Made by a program: the position numbers and the translations under genes. Source: an uncultured bacterium (lineage in GTDB: Bacteria; Hydrothermota; UBA3072). Taken from it: a stretch of DNA of 64,000 nt. The first letter of the stretch is position 1. Every line of letters starts with the position of its first letter. Shown here piece after piece: positions 3 to 23,297 of this stretch. The stretch lies in the NCBI GenBank assembly GCA_964418485.1, contig CAYQMH010000003.1, forward strand, positions 9,609 through 73,608. Direction: 5' to 3'. The notes beneath the pieces were generated by a model that had not been told where the DNA came from, made no database searches, and saw only the letters and a list, made by a program, of their open reading frames with translations.

Positions 3-1433
3 CCTTTTAATCTTTCCGTTCTTGCCTGGGTTTCTTTTATTCCCCTGTTTTATTCTCTTCGAGACGGAAAATTTCCTTATCTGAAGGGTTTTATTATGGG
101 CTTTGCTTTTTTTTCTACACTTCTTTATTGGCTTGCCTTCTCGGATGTGGTAGAAGGTACGATTGTTCCACTTGTAGTTCTTGGGTCTTTTCTTTTGGTG
201 GTATATCTTGCTTCTTTCTTCGGTTTCTCGGGTATTTTGTATGATAAGTTGAATAAAAGAGGCTATCTCTACTTATTCCCGATAGTTTTTGCGGGGCTTG
301 AGTTCCTGCGGAGTCTTTCTTCCGTATGGGGTTTTACCTGGGGTTCGGTTGGCTTTTCCCAGAGCAATTTAATACATCTAATCCAGTTTGCCTCCATAGG
401 CGGCTTGCCTCTTGTTACTTTGTGGGTACTTTTTTTAAATATATTTTTATATTTATTTCTTAAGAGTTTAAATGAAAAAAAGAAAGATAAAACAATTTAC
501 TTATTTTCTTTTCTTTCTTTACTGATAATTCCTTTTGTATATTCACAAGGTATACTCAATAGAGGTAATTTATATGGCGAATATAAAACCATTGGAGTAA
601 TACAACCCAATGTTTTACCGGCAGATAAAAGGAAAAGCGGTTTTGATAGATTATTAAAAATAAGAAATATTATTGAAAATTGTCCCCAAGCCGATTTATA
701 CGTATTATCGGAAACTGCTTCTCCTTTTCCGATTTTCTACAACTATGAAGCAGAGAGCTTTTTTCGTGAGCTTGCAAAACAAAAGAATGCCCCTATAATT
801 ACCGGTACGATTGACTATAAAAAGCAAGAAGGAAAAGTTGCATATTTTAATACGGCATCAATCGTAGATTCATCGGGCATTAGGGGCGTCTATAGAAAAA
901 TCTTTCTTGTTCCCTTTGTAGAAAGACTGCCTTTCGATGACGTAATTCCAGATTTGAAGAAAATTAATTTAGGACAGGGTGATTTTACTCCTGGTTCCGA
1001 ATTTGCCGTATTTGATGTCGATGGTGTAGTATTTTCCGTTTACATTTGTTATGAGGCAATTTTTCCTCAACTGGTAAGAGAGTTTGTAATAGGTGGGGCT
1101 AAAATGCTTGTGAATATCACCGAGGATGGTTGGTTTGGTAGAACTAACGGACCTTATCAGCATGCTCAAATGGCTGCTTTTCAATCGATAATATTCCGGA
1201 GGGCTGTTGTAAGATCGGCGAACACCGGTATTTCGCTTGTCTCTGATCCTTATGGTAGAATTATAAAGAAAACCCGGATTTTTTGTGAGGATTTTATTGT
1301 TTGTGAAGTTCCTTTGTTAGAATGTAAAACCATCTATGCGAGAATAGGTAATATTTTTGGATGGATTTTTTTGTTTTTTGTTTTGTTAATAATTGTATCG
1401 GAACCGATAATAAGGAAAAATAAGAAAAGATGA
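3..1433 (+). CDS. lnt: Apolipoprotein N-acyltransferase, 5'-truncated by the window edge
   Basis: Frame is open from the window start (PFNLSVLAWVSLIPLF..., a typical Lnt N-terminus). TM region, then CN-hydrolase motifs LSETA, YRKIFLVPFVE, ICYEAIF, NITEDGWFG, VRSANTGIS. Confidence 0.95.
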   Translation, partial: PFNLSVLAWVSFIPLFYSLRDGKFPYLKGFIMGFAFFSTLLYWLAFSDVVEGTIVPLVVLGSFLLVVYLASFFGFSGILYDKLNKRGYLYLFPIVFAGLEFLRSLSSVWGFTWGSVGFSQSNLIHLIQFASIGGLPLVTLWVLFLNIFLYLFLKSLNEKKKDKTIYLFSFLSLLIIPFVYSQGILNRGNLYGEYKTIGVIQPNVLPADKRKSGFDRLLKIRNIIENCPQADLYVLSETASPFPIFYNYEAESFFRELAKQKNAPIITGTIDYKKQEGKVAYFNTASIVDSSGIRGVYRKIFLVPFVERLPFDDVIPDLKKINLGQGDFTPGSEFAVFDVDGVVFSVYICYEAIFPQLVREFVIGGAKMLVNITEDGWFGRTNGPYQHAQMAAFQSIIFRRAVVRSANTGISLVSDPYGRIIKKTRIFCEDFIVCEVPLLECKTIYARIGNIFGWIFLFFVLLIIVSEPIIRKNKKR

Positions 1434-9813: not shown

Positions 9814-10662
9814 CTATTCATAATAGCCTAACCTTTTTACTTCGTTCTTTTCTTTTCGCCAGTTTTTCTTAACCGCTACCCAGGTTTTCATGTATACCGG
9901 TCTTCCCAGAAATTCTTCGATGCTCTTACGTGCTTCGCTTACAACTTTCTTTAGTTTCTGTCCGCCCTTTCCTATTATAATACCTTTTTGAGATTCCCTT
10001 TCAACGAAAATTTTCAAATCTATCTTGTTGTCTTCCATATTTTCTACTTTAACAGCTACAGAATATGGTATTTCCTGTGAATATTCCTCAAGAACCTTTT
10101 CTCTTACGAATTCTTCGATAAAAAAGCGCTCGGGTCGGTCAGATAAGTAGTCTTCAGGATATAGCGGTTCCCCTTCGGGTAAGTACTCCAAAAGAGAAGG
10201 TATTATTCTATCGATGTTATCACCTCTTAAGGCAGAAACGGTAAAAATCCGGGTGAAATATTGCGAGTCTGTATCTCTCATCATCTTATCTAGATCTTTC
10301 TCGGAAATTAAATCTATCTTATTTATAATCATAAAAGCAGGTTTATCCGACCTTGAAGGTAAATCTGTTATTCTGGAATTTTCCCTGTTGTCCATCATAA
10401 GCATTATAACATCGGAATCATTTATTGCTGTTTCAATCTGCTGTTGCATCGCTTTTTCCATTTCATTTCCCGGTTCGAATTGTCCGGGAGTATCTATAAA
10501 AATTATTTGATTGTTTTCTTCGGTCCAAATCCCCAAAATTCTGTTTCTTGTAGTTTGAGGTTTTGGGTTAACGATAGAAATTTTGCTACCTATAAGTCGG
10601 TTTAACAAAGTAGATTTACCTACATTGGGTTTTCCAATTATTGAAACATATCCTGCTTTCAT
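9814..10662 (-). CDS. era: GTPase Era
   Basis: GKPNVGKS, PQTTR, DTPG, NKID, C-terminal KH domain with QKGIIIGKGG. Confidence 0.97.
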   Translation of the reverse strand: MKAGYVSIIGKPNVGKSTLLNRLIGSKISIVNPKPQTTRNRILGIWTEENNQIIFIDTPGQFEPGNEMEKAMQQQIETAINDSDVIMLMMDNRENSRITDLPSRSDKPAFMIINKIDLISEKDLDKMMRDTDSQYFTRIFTVSALRGDNIDRIIPSLLEYLPEGEPLYPEDYLSDRPERFFIEEFVREKVLEEYSQEIPYSVAVKVENMEDNKIDLKIFVERESQKGIIIGKGGQKLKKVVSEARKSIEEFLGRPVYMKTWVAVKKNWRKEKNEVKRLGYYE

Positions 10663-10669
10663 ATACGCA

Positions 10670-10697
10670 AATATATCCCTATCACTTATAAAGTCAA
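10670..10697 (-). promoter_or_regulatory. Sigma70-type promoter of era, probably leaderless
   Basis: TTGACT-N16-TATATT followed by 7 nt and ATG; no Shine-Dalgarno. Confidence 0.7.
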
Positions 10698-10789
10698 GGG
10701 AAAGCGAATATCGGTCTAATATGCGTCTTGGAAGGAGATAAAGTACTAAATTGTAATTGTACCTGATCGCCTCAAAACATCTTGAATTT

Positions 10790-10927
10790 AAAAATCAAAT
10801 ATCAAAATGTAAAATTACAAATCAAAATTAATAAAAAAACAAAGAAAAAACAAATCGCACGAATAGCACAAATTGTTTCCTATTTAGCCATTCAACAATT
10901 CAACCATTTAACTGATTCGAAGAATCT
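10790..10927. repeat. Intergenic patch of short imperfect tandem repeats; the 3' ~90 bp is homologous to 15670-15791
   Basis: AAATCAAAT/ATCAAAAT/GTAAAAT/TACAAAT repeats, then CGCACGAATAGCACAAAT and CCATTCAACAATTCAACCATTTAACT-GATTCGAAGAATCT. Confidence 0.75.
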
Positions 10928-10928
10928 A

Positions 10929-12515
10929 CTATTGTGCTTTTATAACCGTTATATTCTTCGATGTCCAGGCTACAATTTCTCTTCCTCTGTACAAAAATGC
11001 AAATACTTTTACATTTCTTTGCTCTATTCCTTCGGGAAGTTTATTTGCCTGGAATTCACGGTCTAGAATTACTCTGCCGGCATCTACGGGAACAACCTTC
11101 CATGCTACTCTGTAATCGACGGGTTTCTTATTTAATGTTATAGGTATTTTGAATCCCTCTATCACTTGTTGCGAAGGGAAAACAAATTCAATAAATCCCT
11201 TAGGTTGTTTGCTCTCTGCGGGCGAGGGCCCATCCCCCCACGTATAATATGTACTTGTGTCTACTCTCGAGGACTGGTCTTCACCTATAACTACGAACGC
11301 TCTTGCAGGTCTAATATTTAAGTCTGATTGAGGTTCAGCCATTAGGATTCCTGCCCCGGGTCTTCCGGGAATAAAAACACCATTATTATTAACAGAACCG
11401 AGGTCTTCGGGTATTACTCTCCATTTCAAATCTATCCTCTGTTCACCTAGGACCCTGAACGGAAATTCCTTGCCGATATCACTTATGGTAAAGTGTTTGA
11501 AAGAAGGTGTTATTTCCAAAGGTTTTATTGCCTCTGAGGTTATATAGACACTTGCGGAAACGACTCCTTTACCAAATCTTTGCGGGAGGACAGCAATTAC
11601 TCTGCCTTTCGTTGGAATCTTGCCAGCGATAAAAGTACCGTTTTTTCTGATTTGCCCGCACCTCTCAGGTATAACCTTCCAATTAACTGGAATATTCGCA
11701 TTGCCGAAACCTTCTGCATATACTTTAAAATGTACTGTTTCTCCTGTTTTAAGGGTTACGGATTCCGGAATTATACGCAAGCCCACTTCTCCGCTTACTA
11801 CCACAATAGCCCGGTCTTCGTCGGCGTCTTTTTCGGCTACAATAACAGCTTTTCCCGGGATTTTAGCTGTAAATATGCCGCTTGCGTTTATCTCTCCTAT
11901 ATTTTCATCTTCAACTCTCCAGGAGACTTTCTCGTTCCTTTTTATCTGGAATTGTACTTTCTCTCCCGTTTTTACTCTTTTGAACCGAGGGGTAATTTGA
12001 ATATCATTTATTACGCCACTTACTCTGACTAGAGCTGTTTTTATTTCTCCGTCGTTAAGCAAAGCAATCACCCTGCCTCTACCACTATTTTTAGCTGTAA
12101 AAACTCCGTCTCGGATAGTTCCAATTCTGGCGGGTATACATTTCCATTCTTTAGCCGTTCCCCCGGTTACTGTAAATTTGATTTGTTCTCCTTCTTTTAG
12201 AATCGCAACCGGCGGAAGTATTTTTGCGCTTTCCCTGCCGCCTATCTTGATATAGGCAAAACCGGTTGCATGTTTGCTCTCTTTCATAATGCTACATCTA
12301 AGAACACCCCTTCCCTCTTCACTCGCTATAAAAGTGTTTCCCTGTACTCGCCCAAGAGAGCCAGGTATAACGTTAAACGACAAATCCCCTTCGAGTATTC
12401 TACCCTCTCTGTCTAATACCCTTACAGTAAAGGAAATTCTTTCGCCTACTTTACCCTCAAGAGGATTCGGTGATATATGCAGTTCCAACGATAATAATAA
12501 AAGGACTAACATCAT
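10929..12515 (-). CDS. Secreted protein with about six tandem Ig-like (Big_2-like) repeats
   Basis: Short signal peptide; repeated unit ITP....(V)K.GE...F....V.W.V.P..IG.I...G.F.A...G.G.V.A, five clear copies plus one divergent. Confidence 0.75.
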   Translation of the reverse strand: MMLVLLLLSLELHISPNPLEGKVGERISFTVRVLDREGRILEGDLSFNVIPGSLGRVQGNTFIASEEGRGVLRCSIMKESKHATGFAYIKIGGRESAKILPPVAILKEGEQIKFTVTGGTAKEWKCIPARIGTIRDGVFTAKNSGRGRVIALLNDGEIKTALVRVSGVINDIQITPRFKRVKTGEKVQFQIKRNEKVSWRVEDENIGEINASGIFTAKIPGKAVIVAEKDADEDRAIVVVSGEVGLRIIPESVTLKTGETVHFKVYAEGFGNANIPVNWKVIPERCGQIRKNGTFIAGKIPTKGRVIAVLPQRFGKGVVSASVYITSEAIKPLEITPSFKHFTISDIGKEFPFRVLGEQRIDLKWRVIPEDLGSVNNNGVFIPGRPGAGILMAEPQSDLNIRPARAFVVIGEDQSSRVDTSTYYTWGDGPSPAESKQPKGFIEFVFPSQQVIEGFKIPITLNKKPVDYRVAWKVVPVDAGRVILDREFQANKLPEGIEQRNVKVFAFLYRGREIVAWTSKNITVIKAQ

Positions 12516-13489
12516 CCCTCCTTATAAAAAGTGATATTTTTTTCTTCTTTTGTTTTTACGGAAAGGTAGTGTAAACCTTCTTCCAATGGTGGGATGGAAT
12601 CACTTCCTATAAATATGACATTCGAGTCTTTCTCTTTTATATAATTTGTTATTTGTTCTCCATCAAGACTGATTTCAATTGCTTCTTCAGGATCTTTCAA
12701 TATAAGGACGATTTCAAAGTTTTTCCCTACAACTGACCCTTCTTCAGGAAACACAAACCGGGTTTCTTCAAAATTTTCCTCAGATATAATTTGACCCGAA
12801 AAATCACTTTCGGTGGTCCCAAAAGATACTGCTTCTGTTTCCGAAGCGGGTTCTAAAGAACGAATTTCTTTGCTTTGACTGAAATCCATTTTGATACTTC
12901 TAGGAGGTGCAGTTGCTTTCAAAGGGGCCTTTTTTGTTTCCCCTACTACTGCAAGCTCTTTCTCTTTTTCCGGCAAAGGAGCTCGCGGGGCCTTTGCCGT
13001 TTTCGCGCCTGATTCCGAATGAGGTTTTTCGTCTCTTATTTCTTCTACTTCCATTTTAGCCAAAGAAGCTTCAGTGCTCTCTCCAATTTTCTCTTCTTTC
13101 AAATCTCCTTTCGTAAGGATTTCTTGAGGTTTTTTTGTCGTTAATATTCGATTGCCATCTTCTATGTTGAGTAAAACCGTAGTAATGACCATTAAAACTG
13201 CCGCAGCACTTACTGTCAGATATCTCCATCTGATTTTGGATGAACTAATTATTACCGGAACTTCTTTCTGGGTAGTGTTTTTTAATATATTGTCAATTAA
13301 ATAATCGGGACATTGAATTTCTTCCCTTCCGATGCGAAGTTTTTGCAAAAGTTCTTCTCTGCTTTTGAGTTTTTCTCTGCAAGTTTCGCAGAATTTTAGA
13401 TGATTTTCTAAGCCCTTTCGTTCCTCACCGCTTAGAGTGTTGTCCAGGTAACCTTGAATTAATTCCTCAAATCTTTTATGATTTTTCAT
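12512..13489 (-). CDS. Zinc-binding (zf-HC2) transmembrane anti-sigma factor with C-terminal Ig-like domain
   Basis: YLDNTLS...HLKFCETC (HxxxCxxC); one TM helix WRYLTVSAAAVLMVITTVLL; charged linker; beta-rich C-terminal domain; overlaps the ECF gene stop. Confidence 0.88.
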   Translation of the reverse strand: MKNHKRFEELIQGYLDNTLSGEERKGLENHLKFCETCREKLKSREELLQKLRIGREEIQCPDYLIDNILKNTTQKEVPVIISSSKIRWRYLTVSAAAVLMVITTVLLNIEDGNRILTTKKPQEILTKGDLKEEKIGESTEASLAKMEVEEIRDEKPHSESGAKTAKAPRAPLPEKEKELAVVGETKKAPLKATAPPRSIKMDFSQSKEIRSLEPASETEAVSFGTTESDFSGQIISEENFEETRFVFPEEGSVVGKNFEIVLILKDPEEAIEISLDGEQITNYIKEKDSNVIFIGSDSIPPLEEGLHYLSVKTKEEKNITFYKEG

Positions 13490-14016
13490 ATTTTTCCCTT
13501 CAACATTTCTTCAAGTTTTGTAATGGTTCTATTTAAACGTGAGCGTACCGTCCCGATTGGTATACCTAATATTTGCGCTATGGTCGAATAGTCGCAATCT
13601 TCGTAATATCTAAGCGCTAAAACTTCCTGATATTTTTTAGGTAATAAATAAACCATACTTTTGATGAGTTGCGCCTTGGACTTCTCGTTGAAGAATTTCT
13701 CGGGATTTCCTTCTGCCGCAGGAGGAGTAATCTCATCGATGGAAATTTTATTTTCCTGGCGGGCTTTTTCTCTACGGTATTTAAAAACAGTATTGAGAGC
13801 AATTCTGTAAAGCCAGGTGTAAACGGCCGAATCTCCCCTAAAGGATTTAAATCCTCTCCAGGCATTAATAAAAACATCCTGAGTTAATTCTTTTGTAATT
13901 TCGTAATTGTTTGTCATATTATAAATCATTTTAAAAATCCTTTGAGTGTGGGTTTTAACAACTTTCTCAAATATCTCTTTACTTTTTTCATCATTTTTAT
14001 TCCTCCGTCTCTTCAT
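13486..14016 (-). CDS. ECF RNA polymerase sigma factor (RpoE/SigW-like)
   Basis: ELTQDVFINAWRG, FRGDSAVYTWLYRIALN (region 2); LRYYEDCDYSTIAQILGIPIGTVRSRLNR (region 4). Confidence 0.95.
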   Translation of the reverse strand: MKRRRNKNDEKSKEIFEKVVKTHTQRIFKMIYNMTNNYEITKELTQDVFINAWRGFKSFRGDSAVYTWLYRIALNTVFKYRREKARQENKISIDEITPPAAEGNPEKFFNEKSKAQLIKSMVYLLPKKYQEVLALRYYEDCDYSTIAQILGIPIGTVRSRLNRTITKLEEMLKGKI

Positions 14017-14022
14017 TTATCT

Positions 14023-14052
14023 ATTTAGATACAAAATCCAAGAGTTAGTTCC
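14023..14052 (-). promoter_or_regulatory. Putative ECF autoregulatory promoter
   Basis: GGAACTAA-CTCTTGGATTTTG-TATCTAAAT immediately upstream of the sigma ATG; resembles the RpoE/AlgU-type GAACT-N16/17-TCTAA consensus. Confidence 0.75.
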
Positions 14053-15555
14053 CTAAAAATCGTACTCATATATAATTCTAAGCAGATGTTCGCTATAGCC
14101 GTTCTCTAAATATGGATAGTAGTTTATGTTTATATTTCCGAAGCTACCCAGTCCTAATGTTCCGTCTATATTGAGATCATAATTTTTATTTGTCCCGTTT
14201 ATATAAGTATAAAGACCAAAAGATAGAATATGATTTCCGTGATACCAGGAAACATTAGATAAAATTCTATAGGTATTTGTTTCTTCAATGTAGGTTGTTT
14301 TTTCAACTCCCAATGTATTTTCCATTTGCAGGAGACCAAAAACAGATTCAAAGCCCAGACCAATATAACTGTATTTTTCATCAAAATATTCCGGATATTT
14401 AGCCCACTGATATTCCAGAATAGGCGAGAAGTAATCGTATATCTTCCATTTAAACGATTGCGTAAGGGATAAGCCGAGGTTCTCTTCTTCTTTGTAAGCA
14501 AGGTAGTTAAAGTAAGTTGAAAGAGGTCCCTTTTCATATACTCCGTTTGCAAAGCCGGAAGTCCTTCCATTGTAAAGATAAGAGTTTCCCAGCGTTAGAT
14601 ACCCGTTACTCACAGTTCTTATACCGACTTCAATATCATTAAAGTTCGATTCAAATATTAATTTACCTTCAAAAGCGCTTCCTTTTATAATGGAATCCGT
14701 ATAAAGATTGGCATTACCGTTTGAAAAAGCTCCTTTTATTTTTAACGATAGGACTTTATTAAAGAGAAGTTCTGTCTCTCCTGATAAAACCGCAGATTCC
14801 TGCGGATCCTCGAACGTAAAATCCACTATATTCGAAGTATCGTCTCTCCCATAAAAAGCACTGAATCCCATAGACAACAGAGCTTTTTTAAATGTTATTT
14901 TACCTCCAAGGAGCCATCTGGGGTATTCCGCGAACAAACTGTCATAATCCTTTGAGTACAAGACAACAGGTGTTAGGGAAAAATTCCCTGCACCTATTTC
15001 GCCGCTTAACCCAAAGCCTCCGGGAGAATATATTGTCAATTCATGCAGATAGGGAGAGATATAACCTGCTTCCAGATAGGATTTTCCCTTTAAATAGCTT
15101 AAGTATGGATACCAGTATATCTGATACTCCGGATCATGATAAAGTGAAAATCTAAGGTATTCTTCATTCTTATAAACAGAAAAATCTAAACCCATGAGAG
15201 CTTCGTTTTCTCCTGTGTGGAAACTATCCGCGAAATAGGTGTTTTGATTTCCTATTGAAAAATTTGCTGAAAAGATATATGGAATTTCTTCTCTTTTTTC
15301 ACTTACATAGAAAACCCATTCTTCGGACTCATCTTCGGTTTCTACTTTTATTTTGTGCCCACCTTCGGATAGATTGTTTGTTTCCGAAAAGAAATACCCT
15401 GATTTTATTTCACCCGGAAGCCGCACACCGTCTAAATAAACATTTATTGATTTTTCCTCTACCGGTGGATCGAACAGGATAGTTATATCGAAATTAGAGA
15501 AAATCGAATCTCTCGGAGAAATAAGAAATATTGTTGAAATAATTAATTCTAACAT
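14053..15555 (-). CDS. Putative outer-membrane beta-barrel protein with N-terminal Ig-like domain
   Basis: Signal-like N-terminus; Ig-like segment (INVYLDG...LSEGGHKIKV); alternating aromatic beta-strands; C-terminal strand ending YEYDF. Upstream TTGACC-N17-TAAAAT at 15595-15567. Confidence 0.65.
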   Translation of the reverse strand: MLELIISTIFLISPRDSIFSNFDITILFDPPVEEKSINVYLDGVRLPGEIKSGYFFSETNNLSEGGHKIKVETEDESEEWVFYVSEKREEIPYIFSANFSIGNQNTYFADSFHTGENEALMGLDFSVYKNEEYLRFSLYHDPEYQIYWYPYLSYLKGKSYLEAGYISPYLHELTIYSPGGFGLSGEIGAGNFSLTPVVLYSKDYDSLFAEYPRWLLGGKITFKKALLSMGFSAFYGRDDTSNIVDFTFEDPQESAVLSGETELLFNKVLSLKIKGAFSNGNANLYTDSIIKGSAFEGKLIFESNFNDIEVGIRTVSNGYLTLGNSYLYNGRTSGFANGVYEKGPLSTYFNYLAYKEEENLGLSLTQSFKWKIYDYFSPILEYQWAKYPEYFDEKYSYIGLGFESVFGLLQMENTLGVEKTTYIEETNTYRILSNVSWYHGNHILSFGLYTYINGTNKNYDLNIDGTLGLGSFGNININYYPYLENGYSEHLLRIIYEYDF

Positions 15556-15611
15556 AATTTAAGTTTATTTTATTGTTTTTTGCACGGTTGGTCAACCCTT
15601 TTTTGTATTTA

Positions 15612-15791
15612 GCCACTAAGTTACAAAGACACAACAAATCATATTTATTTTGTTTATCCCCACAACCCAAAAACAAAGAGAAACAACAAATAACACGAAT
15701 TACACAAATCCACACCCTACCCTAATTTTATTTTGTTTTTCCTATTCAACTATTCAACAATTTAACCATTCAACTAAGATTTGAAGAATCT
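15612..15791. repeat. Intergenic repeat patch homologous to 10835-10927
   Basis: GCCACTAAGTTACAAAGACAC, AACACGAATTACACAAAT, CCTATTCAACTATTCAACAATTTAACCATTCAACTAAGATTTGAAGAATCT. Confidence 0.75.
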
Positions 15792-15805
15792 TTTGTATGC
15801 AGTTC

Positions 15806-15833
15806 TTGACATAATAATTTGAGTGTGTAAATT
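15806..15833 (+). promoter_or_regulatory. Sigma70-type promoter for the DUF4870 gene
   Basis: TTGACA-N16-TAAATT with TG extension. Confidence 0.6.
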
Positions 15834-15870
15834 GGAAAGACAATAAAAAAGCAAAAGGAGGTAAAGCAGA

Positions 15871-16224
15871 ATGGCTAAGAAAAAAAAGAATGAAGCTAAT
15901 ACGTGGGCTATGCTTTGTCATTTAACCGCTCTTACATTATATATCGGTGTGCCTTTGGGGCATATAATCGTTCCTCTTATTATCTGGCTGATTAAGAGAG
16001 AAGAGTTTGCTTTCGTAGACGAACAGGGAAAAGAATCATTGAATTTCCAGATTTCAATTACTATTTACGGAATTGCTGCCGGACTGCTGTGCCTTGCCGT
16101 GATTGGTTTTGTTTTAATTCCGGTTATTGTTGTCACTCATATTGTGTTAACCATAATGGCGACAGTTAAAGCTAATCAGGGAGAAGGGTATCACTATCCT
16201 TTTGCAATAAAATTTATTAAGTAA
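15871..16224 (+). CDS. DUF4870-family small membrane protein
   Basis: TWAMLCHL, PLIIWLIKRE, FVDEQGKESLNFQIS, YHYPFAIKFIK; AGGAGG RBS. Confidence 0.9.
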   Translation: MAKKKKNEANTWAMLCHLTALTLYIGVPLGHIIVPLIIWLIKREEFAFVDEQGKESLNFQISITIYGIAAGLLCLAVIGFVLIPVIVVTHIVLTIMATVKANQGEGYHYPFAIKFIK

Positions 16225-16315
16225 AAGAAGATCAAAAATTCAAATTATATAAAAGTTTGTCAAGGTAAGCTTTCAGGTTAAGTTTTCTTGATTTATCCAA
16301 AGGTGCATTTTTTTT

Positions 16316-16345
16316 GGAACTAAATAGCAGTTTTCTTATCTAAAT
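16316..16345 (+). promoter_or_regulatory. Putative ECF-dependent promoter of the serpin gene
   Basis: GGAACTAA-ATAGCAGTTTTCT-TATCTAAAT: both boxes and the N13 spacing are identical to the motif at 14052-14023. Confidence 0.75.
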
Positions 16346-16363
16346 CTAAAAACAGGAGGCAAT

Positions 16364-17596
16364 ATGAAGATTAAAAGAATATACTTTGTAATGTTTTTGC
16401 TTTTTCTTTCAACTTTTGGTTGTAACGTTACTGATCCCAGCGACCCGCTGCGAGAATTAAGTTCTTCCGAGACGAAACTTGTCGAAGCGGATAACTCTTT
16501 TGGGCTTAAACTCTTTAAAGAAATCAACGAAGAAGAAACAGAATCGAATGTTTTTATCTCACCTTTATCCATTTCAATGGCTCTTGGTATGACTTATAAC
16601 GGTGCTTGTGAGAGTACCGAAGAGGCAATGAGAACCACACTTGAATTTGGGAATTTATCCAGAGGTGAAATAAATGAATCCTATAAAAGCCTGATAGAGT
16701 TGCTGAGAGGTATTGACTCTGATGTTGAATTCAATATAGCGAATTCCATCTGGTATCGGGATGATTGGACTTTTGAAGAGGATTTTCTTGAACGGTGCAG
16801 AGATTATTTTGATGCGAGGGTAAGCGCGCTTGATTTCAGTCAAAGTGCGGCGGCAAAGGATACGATGAACAACTGGGTGGATGAAAACACAAATGGTAAA
16901 ATTGAGGAAATAGTAGATTATGTTGACCCGGATAATGATGTTATGTTTTTAATAAACGCCATATATTTTAATGGCACCTGGACCTTCCAGTTTGACAAAG
17001 AAGATACTAAAGATGACATATTCTATCTTCCCGGAGACAGAACCAAAAAATGCAAAATGATGGAGGTGAAAAGTGAGTTCAAATATTTTGAAGATTCGCT
17101 CTTGCAGGCAATCGATATTCCTTACGGAAATGGAAACTACTCGATGACGGCAATCCTGCCTAATTATGGGAAAGATATAGATGAGTTAATTGTAGGATTG
17201 ACACAGGAAAAGTGGAATGAGTGGATGGGTAGTTTCTCTGAAGACTCGGTTAATTTGTTTTTCCCTAAACTTAAGCTTGAATATAAAGTAGAAGAAACAT
17301 TAAAGAAAGTTTTAATTGATATGGGAATGGGTATTGCTTTTAGTGGTTCGGCTGACTTCACCGGAATGTATGAACCCGGAGGGATTTGGATTGGCAGAAT
17401 AATACATAAGACTTTTCTGGAGGTTGATGAGGAAGGAACAGAAGCTGCAGCAGCGACTGCGATTGTAATGGTATCGGGTCCAAGTCCAACCCCAAACCCT
17501 ATAATAATTCGCATAGACAGGCCTTTCTTGTTTGCTATCAGAGAAAACCATTCAGGTACCATACTTTTTATCGGAAAGATTGTTGATCCTGTCTAG
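16364..17596 (+). CDS. Serpin-family lipoprotein with an inhibitory-type hinge
   Basis: Lipobox TFGC; NVFISPLSISMALGM, LINAIYFNGTW, EVDEEGTEAAAAT hinge, DRPFLFAIRE, ILFIGKIVDP. Confidence 0.95.
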   Translation: MKIKRIYFVMFLLFLSTFGCNVTDPSDPLRELSSSETKLVEADNSFGLKLFKEINEEETESNVFISPLSISMALGMTYNGACESTEEAMRTTLEFGNLSRGEINESYKSLIELLRGIDSDVEFNIANSIWYRDDWTFEEDFLERCRDYFDARVSALDFSQSAAAKDTMNNWVDENTNGKIEEIVDYVDPDNDVMFLINAIYFNGTWTFQFDKEDTKDDIFYLPGDRTKKCKMMEVKSEFKYFEDSLLQAIDIPYGNGNYSMTAILPNYGKDIDELIVGLTQEKWNEWMGSFSEDSVNLFFPKLKLEYKVEETLKKVLIDMGMGIAFSGSADFTGMYEPGGIWIGRIIHKTFLEVDEEGTEAAAATAIVMVSGPSPTPNPIIIRIDRPFLFAIRENHSGTILFIGKIVDPV

Positions 17597-17609
17597 GAAT
17601 GAGGAGTCT

Positions 17610-17639
17610 GGTACTAAACGAGAGGGTTTTAATCTAAAA
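17610..17639 (+). promoter_or_regulatory. Third, slightly degenerate copy of the putative ECF promoter
   Basis: GGTACTAA-ACGAGAGGGTTTT-AATCTAAAA with the same N13 spacing, just before the RBS of the next gene. Confidence 0.6.
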
Positions 17640-17657
17640 AATATAAGGGAGTCTGAA

Positions 17658-18560
17658 GTGAGAGAAAGAAGAAAATTATTATGTTTGTTAGTTGTTTTAT
17701 TGCTCGTTATTGGGTGTAAAAATAACCCGATAGGCAACGATATTTCTCCGGATGAAGCGGCTGATGAAGCGGCAATTGAGGATTACATATCAAACGATCG
17801 TGATTTTGCGGGATATTTTGCGTTTGACGAATATTACGGAGAAGAAGATACTGTGTCCGCCGAAATTCGATTAAGGACCATTACCGGTCCGCATACATGG
17901 TATAGAGAGCCGCAGGATATAAATAGAGATATATCTATAAATATAGTCGATGACTCAGCCTTTGTTAGCTTTTGGAGTAGAGTTGATGGCGTATTTCATG
18001 TACTGGAAAGAGATATATCGGCTTCTCCGGATACCGTAATTGACCATCAAAAGGTTCTTGAAGATCACTCTTCTGACTATGCCATATTTAAACGTTACCC
18101 CGGAGTATCTGCTTACCGGGGATGGAGGCTTGAAAGCCTAACCGGGGTAGATGTAGATGGAAGAGAGATCGCGCATGGTGATTGCGTAATTGTTTTTATT
18201 GATTCCCTCAGAATTAATTGTGAATCCTACGAGGACACGTTATTTACTACTCCCTTCGTATTTTTCCATAGAGAAGAGCTTCTTACTTTTGAAGGTCAGG
18301 AAACGGTCACTTTTACCCTTTATTCACGTTGTGGCGACTATTATGGTATGTATTCCTACCTGCATGCCAATAGTCTGGGAAGTTGGAGAAGATGGGAGTT
18401 TGAAGAAACAGAGGCGGGAGTATGGGAAGGTGATTGGGTAACTCCGATTGTTCCCGGGATTAGGGCTATTGCGTTCGATATTCTGGAGAAGAACACTATC
18501 GACGAAGAAAAGCGCACATATCTGTCCAACATCTGGTTGTTCCCTTATAAAATTGAATAA
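17658..18560 (+). CDS. Hypothetical acidic lipoprotein
   Basis: Probable GTG start 17658 after AAGGGAG; signal peptide RERRKLLCLLVVLLLVIGC with lipobox. Confidence 0.75.
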   Translation: MRERRKLLCLLVVLLLVIGCKNNPIGNDISPDEAADEAAIEDYISNDRDFAGYFAFDEYYGEEDTVSAEIRLRTITGPHTWYREPQDINRDISINIVDDSAFVSFWSRVDGVFHVLERDISASPDTVIDHQKVLEDHSSDYAIFKRYPGVSAYRGWRLESLTGVDVDGREIAHGDCVIVFIDSLRINCESYEDTLFTTPFVFFHREELLTFEGQETVTFTLYSRCGDYYGMYSYLHANSLGSWRRWEFEETEAGVWEGDWVTPIVPGIRAIAFDILEKNTIDEEKRTYLSNIWLFPYKIE

Positions 18561-18585
18561 ATTCTTGTTCGATCCGTTTCTTCGA

Positions 18586-18611
18586 AAAGGGGCAGTTTCA
18601 ACTGCCCCTTT
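18586..18611 (+). terminator. Intrinsic terminator-like hairpin after the serpin-lipoprotein pair
   Basis: AAAGGGGCAGT-TTCA-ACTGCCCCTTT, a perfect 11-bp stem. Confidence 0.75.
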
Positions 18612-20198: not shown

Positions 20199-22061
20199 AT
20201 GTTACTTGAAAAGATTAATTCACCCGAAGATTTGAAAAAATTGTCGATAAAAGAACTTAAAAATCTTGCTTCTGAAATGAGGGATAAAATAATCGATGTT
20301 GTGGCAAAAAACGGTGGGCATCTTGCCCCCAATCTTGGGGTTATCGAGCTAACAATAGCCCTCTTAAGGGTATTTGATCCTCCGTACGACAAAATAATCT
20401 GGGACGTTTCACATCAAGCCTACGGCTACAAATTACTGACAGGAAGAAGAGAAGGATTTGAGACTATACGTAAGTTCGGAGGATTAAGTGGTTTTTTGAA
20501 AAGAGATGAATCGATTTACGATGCCTTCGGAACGGGACATGCAAGCACCTCCTTATCAGCCGCTCTGGGTTTTGCTATTGCCAGGGATAGGAAGGGTGAA
20601 GATAACAAAATTGTGGCTGTAATCGGAGACGGAGCCTTGACAGGTGGAGTAGCTCTGGAAGGGTTAAATCAGATAGGTTATCTTAAAAAAGATATGCTGG
20701 TCATTCTTAACGATAATGAGATGTCTATAGCAAAGAACGTGGGCGGATTTAGGGAGTATTTAACAAGGCTGCAGTCAGCCGAAATTTATAATCTCATTAT
20801 GGAAGATGCCTGGAGTCTTCTTGAGAAATTGCCCGTGGGATTAAATAAAAAAGCGCGAAGAGCCGCAGAAAAACTGCATATCGGGCTAAAGAACTTAATT
20901 GTTCCTAATATTATATTTGAAGAGCTGGGTCTTTCTTATTATGGTCCAATTGACGGGCATAATATAAATGAGCTACTTATGATACTTTCTAAAATTAAAA
21001 AAATAAAGAAAGCCAAACTCCTGCATGTTATTACGGAAAAAGGTAAAGGATACGAGCCTGCGTGCAAAAACCCGGCTCTTTTCCATGGTGTAGGACCTTT
21101 TGAATACGAAACCGGTGAAGTTATAGAAAAGAAAAGACAAAAAACATATTCGCAAGTGTTCGGGGAAGCAATTCTTAGTGAGGCAGAAAAGAATAAGGAT
21201 ATAATTGCAATAACGGCAGCTATGACAGAAGGTACTGGTCTCACGAAGTTCAAAGAAAGGTTTCCCGAAAGATTTTTTGATGTCGGTATAGCGGAACAGC
21301 ATGCTGTGACATTTGCCGGGGGGCTTGCCGCTGAGGGTTTGCGTCCGGTATGTGCAATATACTCGACTTTTCTCCAGAGAGCATTTGACCAGATACTCCA
21401 CGACATAGCGCTGCAAAAATTGCCTGTAATTTTCTGTTTAGACAGGGCTGGTTTTTCGCCCGGAGATGGTCCCACACACCACGGGACTTTCGATCTTTCT
21501 TATTTAAGAATGATACCAAATATTGTAGTAATGGCTCCCAGAGATGAAGTGGAGCTCAAAAGAATGTTAAAAACAGCTCTTCTTAATACCGAAGGACCAT
21601 CGGCGATACGCTACCCAAGAGGACAATCCGTTGGAGTAAAGAGCCCTCGCGAAATACAAGCTATTCCTGTTGGCAAATCAGAGATCTTAAAGAAAGGGGA
21701 GGATACTCTTATATTAACTTTAGGTCCAATTACCTATGAGATACTTGAAGTCGCCCGAGAAATAGATAACTTTAATCCGACAGTGGTTGATGCCAGATTC
21801 GTAAAACCTTTGGATGAAGAAACGATCTTGAATCTTTCGAGAAAAAGTAAAAAGATAATAACGGTTGAAACGAACGTTTTGAGTGGAGGTTTCGGTAGCG
21901 CAGTTTTAGAACTCTTAAGCAGAGAGTCCTTAAAAAAAGAAGTTTTGAGAATAGGTATACCTGATAGCTTTATCGAACATGGAGAAGGGGATAAACTCTT
22001 TGAATCTATCGCCATGGATAAAGAAAGCCTAAAAGATAGAATCAAGGAATTCGTGAAATGA
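20199..22061 (+). CDS. dxs: 1-deoxy-D-xylulose-5-phosphate synthase
   Basis: GGHLAPNLGVIEL, GDGALTGG...LNDNEMSI, FDVGIAEQH, YSTFLQRAFDQ. Confidence 0.98.
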   Translation: MLLEKINSPEDLKKLSIKELKNLASEMRDKIIDVVAKNGGHLAPNLGVIELTIALLRVFDPPYDKIIWDVSHQAYGYKLLTGRREGFETIRKFGGLSGFLKRDESIYDAFGTGHASTSLSAALGFAIARDRKGEDNKIVAVIGDGALTGGVALEGLNQIGYLKKDMLVILNDNEMSIAKNVGGFREYLTRLQSAEIYNLIMEDAWSLLEKLPVGLNKKARRAAEKLHIGLKNLIVPNIIFEELGLSYYGPIDGHNINELLMILSKIKKIKKAKLLHVITEKGKGYEPACKNPALFHGVGPFEYETGEVIEKKRQKTYSQVFGEAILSEAEKNKDIIAITAAMTEGTGLTKFKERFPERFFDVGIAEQHAVTFAGGLAAEGLRPVCAIYSTFLQRAFDQILHDIALQKLPVIFCLDRAGFSPGDGPTHHGTFDLSYLRMIPNIVVMAPRDEVELKRMLKTALLNTEGPSAIRYPRGQSVGVKSPREIQAIPVGKSEILKKGEDTLILTLGPITYEILEVAREIDNFNPTVVDARFVKPLDEETILNLSRKSKKIITVETNVLSGGFGSAVLELLSRESLKKEVLRIGIPDSFIEHGEGDKLFESIAMDKESLKDRIKEFVK

Positions 22062-22867
22062 AAGAAAGAACTATAAGAGCTAATATTGAATTTTCCGGGG
22101 CAGGCGTTCATACCGGAAAAAAATCAAGGATATTACTTAAACCGGAAGAAACCGGCGGAATAAGATTTGAAAAGAATGGTAAAGTAATCCCCGCTACACT
22201 TGATGCGGTAAAATTCTGCGATCGTGAAATTACTCTTTCAAAAAAAGGTGAAAATGTAAGAACAGTAGAACATCTTATGAGTGCTCTTTATGCTTGTAAG
22301 ATCGATCACGTTCAAATAGAAATCCAAGGAGGTGAGGTCCCGGCTCTTGACGGTAGCGCCTACCCTTTTATCTCCGGAATCGAAAAAACAGGCATAAGGG
22401 AATTAAAGAGCGAGAAAAGCAAAAGGTACATTAAAAAAAATATCCTTGTTGAAGGTAAAGGGTGTTTTGCTTCCGCTATGCCTTCGAAAAAACTCGAAAT
22501 ACGTTATATTATTTCCTATGATCATCCTTTACTTTACTATCAGGAATATATTTTTAACGGAAAATCTGATTTTAAAGAGGTTGCGCGTTCTAGAACATAC
22601 GGGTTACTTTCCTGGAAAGAAGAACTGAATAAAAAAGGATTTGCACTCGGCGCATCGGAGGAAAACACTTTAATTTATACGGATAAAGGAATATTGAATA
22701 AAGCTCGTTATTCGGATGAAGCTGTAAGGCACAAAATAATGGACTTTTTGGGAGAACTATATCTATTTAAACCTGTTCCTGTGGGACGATATTTTGTTTT
22801 TAGAGGAGGCCATTTATTGCATTTTCAGTTAATAAAAGAAATAAAAAGGAGTGAAGATGAAATTTGA
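22058..22867 (+). CDS. lpxC: UDP-3-O-acyl-N-acetylglucosamine deacetylase
   Basis: GAGVHTG, TVEHLMSAL, EVPALDGSA, ARSRTYG, RHKIMDFLG. Confidence 0.93.
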   Translation: MKERTIRANIEFSGAGVHTGKKSRILLKPEETGGIRFEKNGKVIPATLDAVKFCDREITLSKKGENVRTVEHLMSALYACKIDHVQIEIQGGEVPALDGSAYPFISGIEKTGIRELKSEKSKRYIKKNILVEGKGCFASAMPSKKLEIRYIISYDHPLLYYQEYIFNGKSDFKEVARSRTYGLLSWKEELNKKGFALGASEENTLIYTDKGILNKARYSDEAVRHKIMDFLGELYLFKPVPVGRYFVFRGGHLLHFQLIKEIKRSEDEI

Positions 22868-23297
22868 TATTAAAAAAATACTTGAAATCATGCCTCATAG
22901 GTATCCTTTTCTTTTAATTGATAAAGTTGACATAATAAACGAAGATGAAATTGTAGGCATAAAAAACGTAACTTATAACGAACCTTTTTTCACTGGACAT
23001 TTCCCCGGTGATCCTATAATGCCGGCGGTTTTGATAGTTGAATCTATGGTTCAGGCTGGTGGGTTTCTACTTTTTAATAAACTTGAAGATCCTACGAAGT
23101 CAAATGTTTATTTTACGTCTATTAATAAAGCAAAGTTCAGAAAACCTGTTCGCCCGGGAGATATTCTGGAACACAAAGTAAAACTTACGGCATTTAGATC
23201 CAATTTTTGCAAATTGGAAGGAAAATCCTTTGTGGAAGGAGATTTAGTCGCTGAGGGCTCATTCGCGGCAGCTATTGTAGAAAGAAAGGGAGTCTAA
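22857..23297 (+). CDS. fabZ: 3-hydroxyacyl-ACP dehydratase
   Basis: MPHRYPFLLID, NEPFFTGHFPGDPIMPAVLIVESMVQ, KFRKPVRPGD. Confidence 0.96.
   Translation: MKFDIKKILEIMPHRYPFLLIDKVDIINEDEIVGIKNVTYNEPFFTGHFPGDPIMPAVLIVESMVQAGGFLLFNKLEDPTKSNVYFTSINKAKFRKPVRPGDILEHKVKLTAFRSNFCKLEGKSFVEGDLVAEGSFAAAIVERKGV

Follow-up and report, generated by a model that had tools for sequence, protein, structure and literature searches.

A predicted ECF-type promoter motif shared by a sigma factor operon, a serpin gene and a lipoprotein gene in a candidate division WOR-3 bacterium

Three copies of a motif and the genes behind them

The locus described here lies in a 64,000-nucleotide stretch of DNA from an uncultured bacterium of the GTDB lineage Hydrothermota, UBA3072 (GenBank assembly GCA_964418485.1, contig CAYQMH010000003.1, positions 9,609 to 73,608), and we refer to this whole stretch as the window. 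It encodes a sigma factor of the extracytoplasmic function (ECF) type together with a candidate anti-sigma factor and, on the opposite strand, a serpin and a lipoprotein of uncharacterised family that we call lipo2. A bipartite motif with the features of an ECF promoter is found upstream of the sigma, serpin and lipo2 genes.

The copy in front of the sigma gene, P1, occupies 14052-14023 on the minus strand and reads GGAACTAA-CTCTTGGATTTTG-TATCTAAAT. It is made up of the GGAACTAA box (14052-14045), a 13-nt spacer and the TATCTAAAT box (14031-14023), the latter with TCTAA at 14029-14025. The first base of P1 directly follows the TAG stop codon (14055-14053) of an open reading frame (ORF) of 500 amino acids (aa), and the gap between this stop codon and the sigma ATG (14016), which holds the whole element, is 36 nt long. 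The ATG lies 6 nt past the end of P1 and 8 nt past TCTAA and is not preceded by a Shine-Dalgarno sequence. P2 (16316-16345, plus strand; GGAACTAA-ATAGCAGTTTTCT-TATCTAAAT) is found upstream of the serpin gene and is identical to P1 at all 17 box bases; 18 nt separate it from the ATG of that gene (16364), and a Shine-Dalgarno sequence, AGGAGG, lies within them. The third copy, P3 (17610-17639, plus strand; GGTACTAA-ACGAGAGGGTTTT-AATCTAAAA), lies 18 nt from the lipo2 start codon, a GTG at 17658. In each of the three spacers a TTTT run is located close to the -10 box. P2 contains a second TCTAA 6 nt past the first (TATCTAAATCTAA, 16339-16349), which is not kept in all relatives. A degenerate pattern of the motif had exactly three matches on both strands of the 64 kb, with 0.55 expected at up to two mismatches.

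Predicted products of the locus

The sigma factor gene (13486-14016, minus strand) encodes a 176-aa protein of the ECF type (group 4) that has regions 2 and 4 only, as indicated by Pfam matches to Sigma70_r2 (residues 20-86) and Sigma70_r4_2 (residues 120-168). Orthologues share the N-terminal sequence MKRRxNKxDE, and this speaks for 14016 as the position of the ATG. The only NCBIfam model that the protein passes is the superfamily model TIGR02937 (101.9 bits against a cut-off of 42.9). Membership in the RpoE/RseA subfamily was rejected: the protein reached 98 bits with the TIGR02939 equivalog model, for which the cut-off is 236, and its anti-sigma factor is of the zf-HC2 type rather than RseA. 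The sigma mRNA made from P1 is probably leaderless, because the ATG is located 8 nt past TCTAA without a Shine-Dalgarno sequence and transcripts usually start 6-8 nt past the -10 box. No second ECF sigma factor, FecR homologue or second serpin was found in the 64-kb window.

Two further genes complete the sigma operon. The first (12512-13489, minus strand) encodes a putative single-pass anti-sigma factor of 325 aa with a zf-HC2 domain (Pfam E 4e-9), in whose translation we read the motif H30-x3-C34-x2-C37. The chain continues with a hydrophobic segment, roughly residues 88-108, then a low-complexity linker at about residues 124-213, which is missing in the orthologous locus L111, and then a conserved C-terminal beta domain. 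The single hydrophobic segment and the predicted extracytoplasmic domain favour an anti-sigma factor of the membrane type, of which RsiW is an example, over the redox-switch type of RsrA. The last gene of the operon (10929-12515, minus strand) encodes an exported protein of 528 aa with Ig-like repeats (Pfam Big_2, E 2.7e-9). The sigma and anti-sigma genes are adjacent in all orthologous loci, and the Big_2 gene follows the anti-sigma gene in all of them, distant ones included. The reading frames of sigma, anti-sigma and Big_2 overlap by 4 nt each, the sigma stop and the anti-sigma start sharing ATGA, which suggests translational coupling.

The serpin gene (16364-17596, plus strand; Pfam Serpin, E 5e-116) encodes a miropin-like protein with a lipoprotein signal peptide, and the nearest solved structure is that of miropin (5ncs, E 2e-88). 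Its lipobox (...S-T-F-G-C20) was read from the sequence without a dedicated predictor, and Cys20 is present in 75 of 75 homologues. The hinge E356-T365 (EEGTEAAAAT) is invariant in the same 75 homologues and agrees with the consensus hinge of inhibitory serpins, which has Glu at P17, Gly at P15, Thr at P14 and small residues from P12 to P9. Variation within the family peaks in the reactive loop, residues 368-383, where the entropy is 2.46, compared with 0.75 on average. Because Cys20 and the hinge are invariant and the reactive loop is hypervariable, the pattern fits working inhibitors with diversified targets. A scan of 20 large ORFs of the window revealed no serine protease gene, and thus no local target of the serpin was identified. 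As a side observation, Asp follows the lipobox cysteine (16421-16426 for serpin residues 20-21) in 56 of 75 homologues, and most of the remainder have Asn there. In E. coli, Asp at this +2 position retains lipoproteins in the inner membrane, a rule that may not hold in WOR-3. The window also encodes Lnt (96-1433, plus strand) as well as LpxC and FabZ (22058-23297), which together indicate a diderm cell with triacylated lipoproteins.

The lipo2 gene (17658-18560, plus strand) encodes a 300-aa lipoprotein without a Pfam or NCBIfam match. Its lipobox, again read from the sequence, is ...V-I-G-C20, with Cys20 invariant. A word-based search returned 35 homologues, all within this clade, and a profile search returned 371 clusters (E <= 1e-3); no Pfam match was found in the ten distant relatives scanned. 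An AlphaFold2 (AF2) model with a mean predicted local distance difference test (pLDDT) score of 68 shows, at moderate confidence, two predicted beta-sandwich domains. A fold search with this model gave generic, weak Ig-like matches with TM scores of about 0.2-0.3. We assign no function to lipo2, and it cannot be recognised as a protease. In the terminator scan no terminator-like site was found between the serpin and lipo2 genes, and read-through from P2 is thus likely to feed lipo2 in the window genome, where P3 is weak (see below). After lipo2, a terminator-like hairpin with an 11-bp stem is located at 18586-18611 on the plus strand (free energy -21.3 kcal/mol, z -5.2 against shuffled sequences).

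An initial annotation of this DNA had reported the three motif copies, the identity of P1 and P2 over 17 bases, the T-run late in the spacers and a terminator that closes the serpin-lipo2 unit. The sequence bears out each of these, and the 64 kb hold no match beyond the three copies; the terminator corresponds to the hairpin just described, which has a weak U-tail and is not listed by a simple terminator scan. The initial annotation missed the gene directly upstream of P1 with its sigma-70-type promoter, the probably leaderless sigma ATG with no Shine-Dalgarno sequence before it and a FecR-domain gene in distant relatives, all of which are described below or above.

The 500-aa ORF upstream of P1 (14053-15555, minus strand) is the first gene of a conserved block and encodes a putative outer-membrane beta-barrel protein, hereafter the OMP-like protein (OMP, outer-membrane protein). 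A match to the Pfam family OMP_b-brl_4 is sub-threshold (E 0.0025), and the protein has a small N-terminal beta-sandwich domain. As read from the sequence, its C-terminus (...IIYEYDF) carries alternating hydrophobic and aromatic residues and a terminal Phe, like the beta-signal of outer-membrane proteins. Profile searches with the family against PDB and Pfam gave no match, and a single-sequence AF2 model (pLDDT 36) was too poor for use. In an hhalign comparison, the anti-sigma C-terminal domain and the OMP-like protein's N-terminal domain aligned over 56 columns (probability 75%, E 2.4e-5), and BLASTP between the two proteins gave nothing significant. The alignment hints that both may carry the same periplasmic module.

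The OMP-like gene has a sigma-70-type promoter of its own, TTGACC-N17-TAAAAT at 15567-15595 on the minus strand, which matches the consensus at 10 of 12 positions, the best match in the region. Both hexamers are conserved in the orthologous loci and their flanks diverge. The ATG (15555) is located 11 nt past the -10 box and lacks a Shine-Dalgarno sequence, and for these reasons the mRNA leader of this gene may be very short or absent. Between the OMP-like and serpin genes lies a gene for a DUF4870 membrane protein (15871-16224), which has no ECF motif and is preceded by the promoter TTGACA-N16-TAAATT at 15806-15833 (plus strand). This gene is present in some orthologous loci only, namely the window, L088, L107 and L108. 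A short intergenic repeat of 54 nt (TTTCCTATT.A.C.ATTCAACAATT.AACCATT.AACT) was also noted at 10876-10927 and 15738-15791. The two copies are 85% identical and occupy the era/Big_2 and OMP-like/DUF4870 intergenic regions, and the orthologous intergenic regions look repeat-rich too.

Conservation of the motif in orthologous loci

Going by the source names of close homologues, the organism belongs to candidate division WOR-3. We gathered orthologous loci from genomes and metagenomes. The DNA covered was 64 kb of the window genome and up to about 10 kb per side in each relative. The conserved block consists of the OMP-like, sigma, anti-sigma and Big_2 genes; in most cases era and a gene for an M23 peptidase come next. 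In orthologues the OMP-like gene always lies directly 5' of the motif, and the distance from its stop codon to the sigma ATG is constant. Across 16 unique sequences of this gap, GGGAACTAA and ATCTAAA are unchanged, the middle of the spacer varies and the ATG is always 8 nt past TCTAA.

A 38-nt position weight matrix (PWM) was built from 28 unique sites of the relatives and the window, leaving out the loci whose sigma factor is 49-57% identical. P1, P2 and P3 score 46.9, 44.7 and 22.4, respectively, and the top score over 50 shuffles of the window is 13.2. P3 is the weak copy of the window genome (GGTAC, with AATCTAAAA as its -10 box); relatives have GGAAC at this site, with scores up to 47.6. 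In 542 kb of orthologous WOR-3 loci, all 54 of the matches scoring at least 20 are located before the sigma operon, a first serpin or lipo2. As a negative control we used 1.2 Mb of unrelated ECF loci, which were the main return of a genome scan with the sigma alignment, and these held no match scoring at least 15. The motif is invariably on the coding strand, 20-21 nt before starts that bear a Shine-Dalgarno sequence and 8 nt before the sigma ATG. The GGAACTAA and ATCTAA(A) boxes are constant, the centre of the spacer varies at fixed length, and the 20 nt upstream of the serpin sites are not conserved. Judged by sequence and conservation, a putative autoregulatory promoter, its -35 box of the GGAAC type, precedes the sigma operon.

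A serpin gene lies divergently upstream in 13 loci, at a distance of 0.2 to 8 kb, and the first serpin bears the motif in 13 of 13 (scores 37-48.5). Where two or three serpins are found in tandem (L081, L107 and L108), the motif precedes the first only, and the lipo2 gene that follows has its own. More distant serpin arrays (L109 and L110, 57-60% identity) lack the motif, and the link between ECF sigma and serpin therefore does not reach them, whichever taxon they come from.

In distant orthologues of the sigma factor (49-57% identity; L100-L105), the block holds genes for the OMP-like protein, a FecR-domain protein, sigma, the zf-HC2 anti-sigma factor and a Big_2-like protein. Each of these loci has a single motif match per 13-20 kb, located just past the OMP-like stop codon and 20-21 nt before the FecR gene. 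The promoter position is therefore old, since the same site is used in relatives with 49-57% sigma identity. The FecR-domain protein of these loci has 390 aa with a long, charged and probably helical C-terminal half, and its gene has a normal Shine-Dalgarno sequence. The clade of the window lacks the FecR gene, of which the window shows no remnant, and here the promoter directly adjoins the sigma ATG. It is this absence that leaves the sigma gene probably leaderless.

Other lineages differ in what surrounds the sigma operon. No serpin was found within 10 kb in the 49-57% lineages, in L004/L095 or in L111 (sigma 64-66% identical), and within 10 kb L004/L095 and L111 have the sigma site only. 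In L112/L113 (sigma 70% identical) an insertion of pst-pho genes (pst-phoU-phoBR) parts sigma from lipo2, which is displaced by 9 kb. L113 carries three tandem lipo2 genes at 9946-12960, each with its own motif (47.6, 38.1 and 34.8), and no serpin in the stretch of about 30 kb covered around its sigma gene. Lipo2 is thus motif-bearing in one further lineage without a nearby serpin. A terminator-like hairpin follows the first lipo2 copy of L113. In a deletion variant, L091/L092, only a 3' remnant of the OMP-like gene is left and serpin and lipo2 are gone, but the motif before sigma is kept. In this variant (L091 1384-1540; L092 has the same sequence) the sigma gene adjoins xseB/ispA and its usual ATG reads ATA. 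A new ATG lies 6 nt upstream, followed by a G-run; these differences may be genuine or may stem from faulty assembly.

Because relatives keep the sigma site without a nearby serpin, these comparisons identify the serpin as a recruit to the regulon in one WOR-3 sub-clade, with the sigma module and the promoter position older, as far as sequence comparison can tell. They also bear on the initial annotation, which had proposed one ECF-type motif before sigma, serpin and lipo2 and had named a background frequency of the motif in coding regions as the result that would count against it. All 54 strong matches in the 542 kb lie upstream of genes, and the proposal is supported by the comparison. The synteny that it suggested checking is found for sigma, anti-sigma and Big_2, which stay together in orthologues, and for the serpin in one sub-clade only. 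The serpin is a target in every serpin-bearing locus of the 13 but is not a core output of the regulon.

The promoter and the regulon it may define

We conclude that the motif is most probably a promoter read by the ECF sigma factor of 13486-14016 (minus strand), and that the locus comprises an autoregulated sigma/zf-HC2 module with local targets. Autoregulation is supported because the motif stays before the sigma operon where sigma identity has fallen to 49% and where neighbouring genes have been deleted, a pattern typical of autoregulated ECF sigma factors. The motif also follows targets that have moved, as with the displaced lipo2 and its three tandem copies, which supports its reading as a promoter, and the lack of another ECF sigma in the window supports the adjacent sigma as its reader. 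Several points weigh against this conclusion. The sigma dependence of the motif rests on sequence comparison in an uncultivated organism. The full regulon, and other ECF sigma factors of the same specificity, may lie beyond the DNA covered. P3 of the window genome may be weak, because its GGTAC deviates at a -35 base that never varies elsewhere. The leaderless sigma mRNA hangs on the usual distance of 6-8 nt from the -10 box to the transcription start and on the missing Shine-Dalgarno sequence. The outer-membrane barrel is a weak assignment, inferred for the 500-aa protein because the PDB and Pfam profile searches were empty and the AF2 model was poor, and the similarity of this protein to the anti-sigma factor is modest.

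Chance resemblance in AT-rich intergenic DNA is refuted as an origin of the three copies. The pattern is indeed AT-rich, and 0.85 matches are expected in the window when three mismatches are allowed. However, with base frequencies of about 0.33 per A or T and 0.17 per G or C, our own estimate from composition puts the expected number of exact 17-base matches per 128 kb of strand at about 6e-5, and the motif is conserved in many lineages with no matches elsewhere. Thus, the three motif copies are not chance. That the element is no promoter but acts as a signal in the RNA, or is a short repeat or mobile element of which copies came to lie before these genes, is highly improbable. Other short intergenic repeats do exist at the locus (10876-10927 and 15738-15791), yet two short boxes around a spacer whose sequence varies but whose length is fixed are unlike a folded RNA or a mobile element, and the motif sites had no Rfam match at E <= 1. 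In addition, the sigma copy is wedged between a stop codon and an ATG that are 36 nt apart.

If the motif is real but read by another factor, either a paralogous ECF sigma or a regulator that binds a bipartite site, the adjacent sigma would be one of its targets and not its reader. ECF sigma factors of one organism can share promoters (PMC5758882), and our search for paralogues covered 64 kb of the genome. We nevertheless consider this quite unlikely, given that the motif is kept before the sigma operon to 49% identity and also after a neighbour is deleted. Furthermore, the GGAAC -35 box, the TC-containing -10 box, the fixed spacing, the location on the coding strand and the distance to the start codons fit a sigma factor, not a repressor. 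It is possible, though in our judgement not probable, that the promoter reading is right and that serpin and lipo2 are two of many outputs of a broad, genome-wide envelope-stress regulon. Classic envelope-stress ECF regulons such as that of sigma-E are large, and the nearby targets do differ among relatives, with the sigma site only in L004/L095 and L111 and no serpin in L113. Against this, neither the 64 kb nor the 542 kb of related loci held any site apart from those of the three gene families. A broad regulon is less favoured because a large one should have given extra sites, and the targets cluster beside sigma in most lineages.

On the preferred reading, in which the adjacent sigma reads the motif, the module would work as follows. 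At rest, the membrane-bound zf-HC2 anti-sigma factor would sequester the sigma factor. An envelope or surface signal, possibly relayed via the OMP-like protein, whose N-terminal domain resembles the periplasmic domain of the anti-sigma factor, would inactivate the anti-sigma factor. The freed sigma would transcribe its own operon from P1, giving positive feedback, and would also transcribe the serpin-lipo2 unit, which the hairpin would close. As output, a lipid-anchored, miropin-like serpin, predicted to be inhibitory, and an Ig-like lipoprotein would be placed in the envelope.

A more specific proposal is that of a protease-sensing defence loop, which would be the first ECF pathway with outside proteolysis as its input and a protease inhibitor as its output. 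Foreign proteases would cut the low-complexity linker of the anti-sigma factor, which is long, poorly conserved and predicted to be periplasmic, or the OMP-like or Ig-like partners; sigma would be released, and the serpin would neutralise the proteases and so shut off the signal. In relatives, two or three serpin paralogues are found whose reactive loops have diversified. We regard this defence loop as doubtful. The initial annotation had suggested sensing of foreign proteases or feedback on anti-sigma cleavage, and both ideas are speculative.

Comparison with known systems and significance

The architecture of the locus is that of a standard autoregulated ECF module. In common with sigma-E/RseA, an ECF sigma is co-transcribed with a single-pass membrane anti-sigma factor, autoregulated and linked to an outer-membrane protein. 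Sigma-E promoters have the geometry GGAAC-N18-TC.AA, and the spacing here, GGAAC-N18-TCTAA, is the same. The -35 motif of E. coli sigma-E is GGAACTT (PMC3326320), and the -35 box at our locus begins GGAACT. In contrast to sigma-E, the anti-sigma factor here is of the zf-HC2 type, the conserved block shows no RseB or RseC gene, the sigma mRNA is probably leaderless, and in place of chaperones or proteases the predicted targets comprise a serpin and an orphan lipoprotein.

Among the Bacillus systems, B. subtilis RsiW is a single-pass zf-HC2 anti-sigma factor that is removed by regulated proteolysis. The initial annotation had taken such release for granted in zf-HC2 anti-sigma factors; it is a known mode, but just one of the known modes of the family. 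Sigma-V/RsiV senses lysozyme and induces matching resistance genes, and this logic of sensing a threat and inducing the matching resistance is that proposed above for proteases. Unlike the sigma-W and sigma-V systems, the one described here belongs to a diderm with an OMP-like partner and has other outputs, and proteolytic release, established for RsiW, is no more than a possibility here. T-tracts in the spacer aid ECF promoter function, and the published Bacillus tract is proximal to the -35 box (PMC5758882). The TTTT run of P1, P2 and P3 adjoins the -10 box, and its identification with the published tract was rejected.

FecI/FecR/FecA offers a further parallel, in that distant orthologues hold OMP-like, FecR-domain, sigma and anti-sigma genes in one block and that the periplasmic domain of the anti-sigma factor resembles the N-terminal domain of the OMP-like protein here. 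Membership in this class was rejected, because no FecR is found in the window and the OMP-like protein has no match to a TonB-dependent receptor, plug or signalling domain. A separate zf-HC2 anti-sigma factor also sets the locus apart.

We know of no described ECF control of miropin. The miropin of Tannerella forsythia is a surface-anchored lipoprotein serpin that inhibits many foreign proteases (bioRxiv 10.1101/2025.09.05.674453), and the likeness of the WOR-3 serpin to it is one of sequence. In Bifidobacterium breve, a two-component system inducible by proteases controls a serpin operon (Alvarez-Martin 2012, as summarised in PMC8012564). In so far as this summary describes it, that system resembles ours in that a signalling system is encoded beside the serpin gene, and the B. 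breve one controls serpin transcription; the B. breve serpin is thought to shield the cell from outside proteases, a further likeness. By the same summary, the two differ in that B. breve is a monoderm with a two-component system, as opposed to an ECF sigma/anti-sigma pair in a diderm, and in that induction by proteases is known for B. breve and hypothetical here. Of the systems covered by these sources, the B. breve two-component system comes closest as a precedent for a bacterial serpin being controlled locally and in response to a signal, and it was the single described instance of serpin regulation that our literature search returned.

To our knowledge, the physiological roles of prokaryotic serpins are poorly understood. 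Full-text literature searches found no report that links a serpin to an ECF sigma or anti-sigma factor in bacteria and no mention of serpins in WOR-3, in agreement with the view of the initial annotation that no ECF-serpin regulon had been described. The regulation of prokaryotic serpins is described as little known (PMC10090351). New at this locus are its output, in the form of a serpin plus a member of an orphan lipoprotein family, a sigma gene whose mRNA probably has no leader, and the conserved OMP-like/FecR/Big_2 context.

In an uncultivated phylum, the locus ties a serpin, by a conserved promoter, to a sigma/anti-sigma pair that is most probably dedicated to envelope signalling. With one sigma factor, three promoters and one inhibitor, it also provides a portable test system. 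Additionally, it shows the rebuilding of an ECF regulon over short evolutionary distances: a FecR gene is absent from the window clade, serpin arrays have been recruited, and an orphan lipoprotein family has been amplified with its own promoter for each copy.

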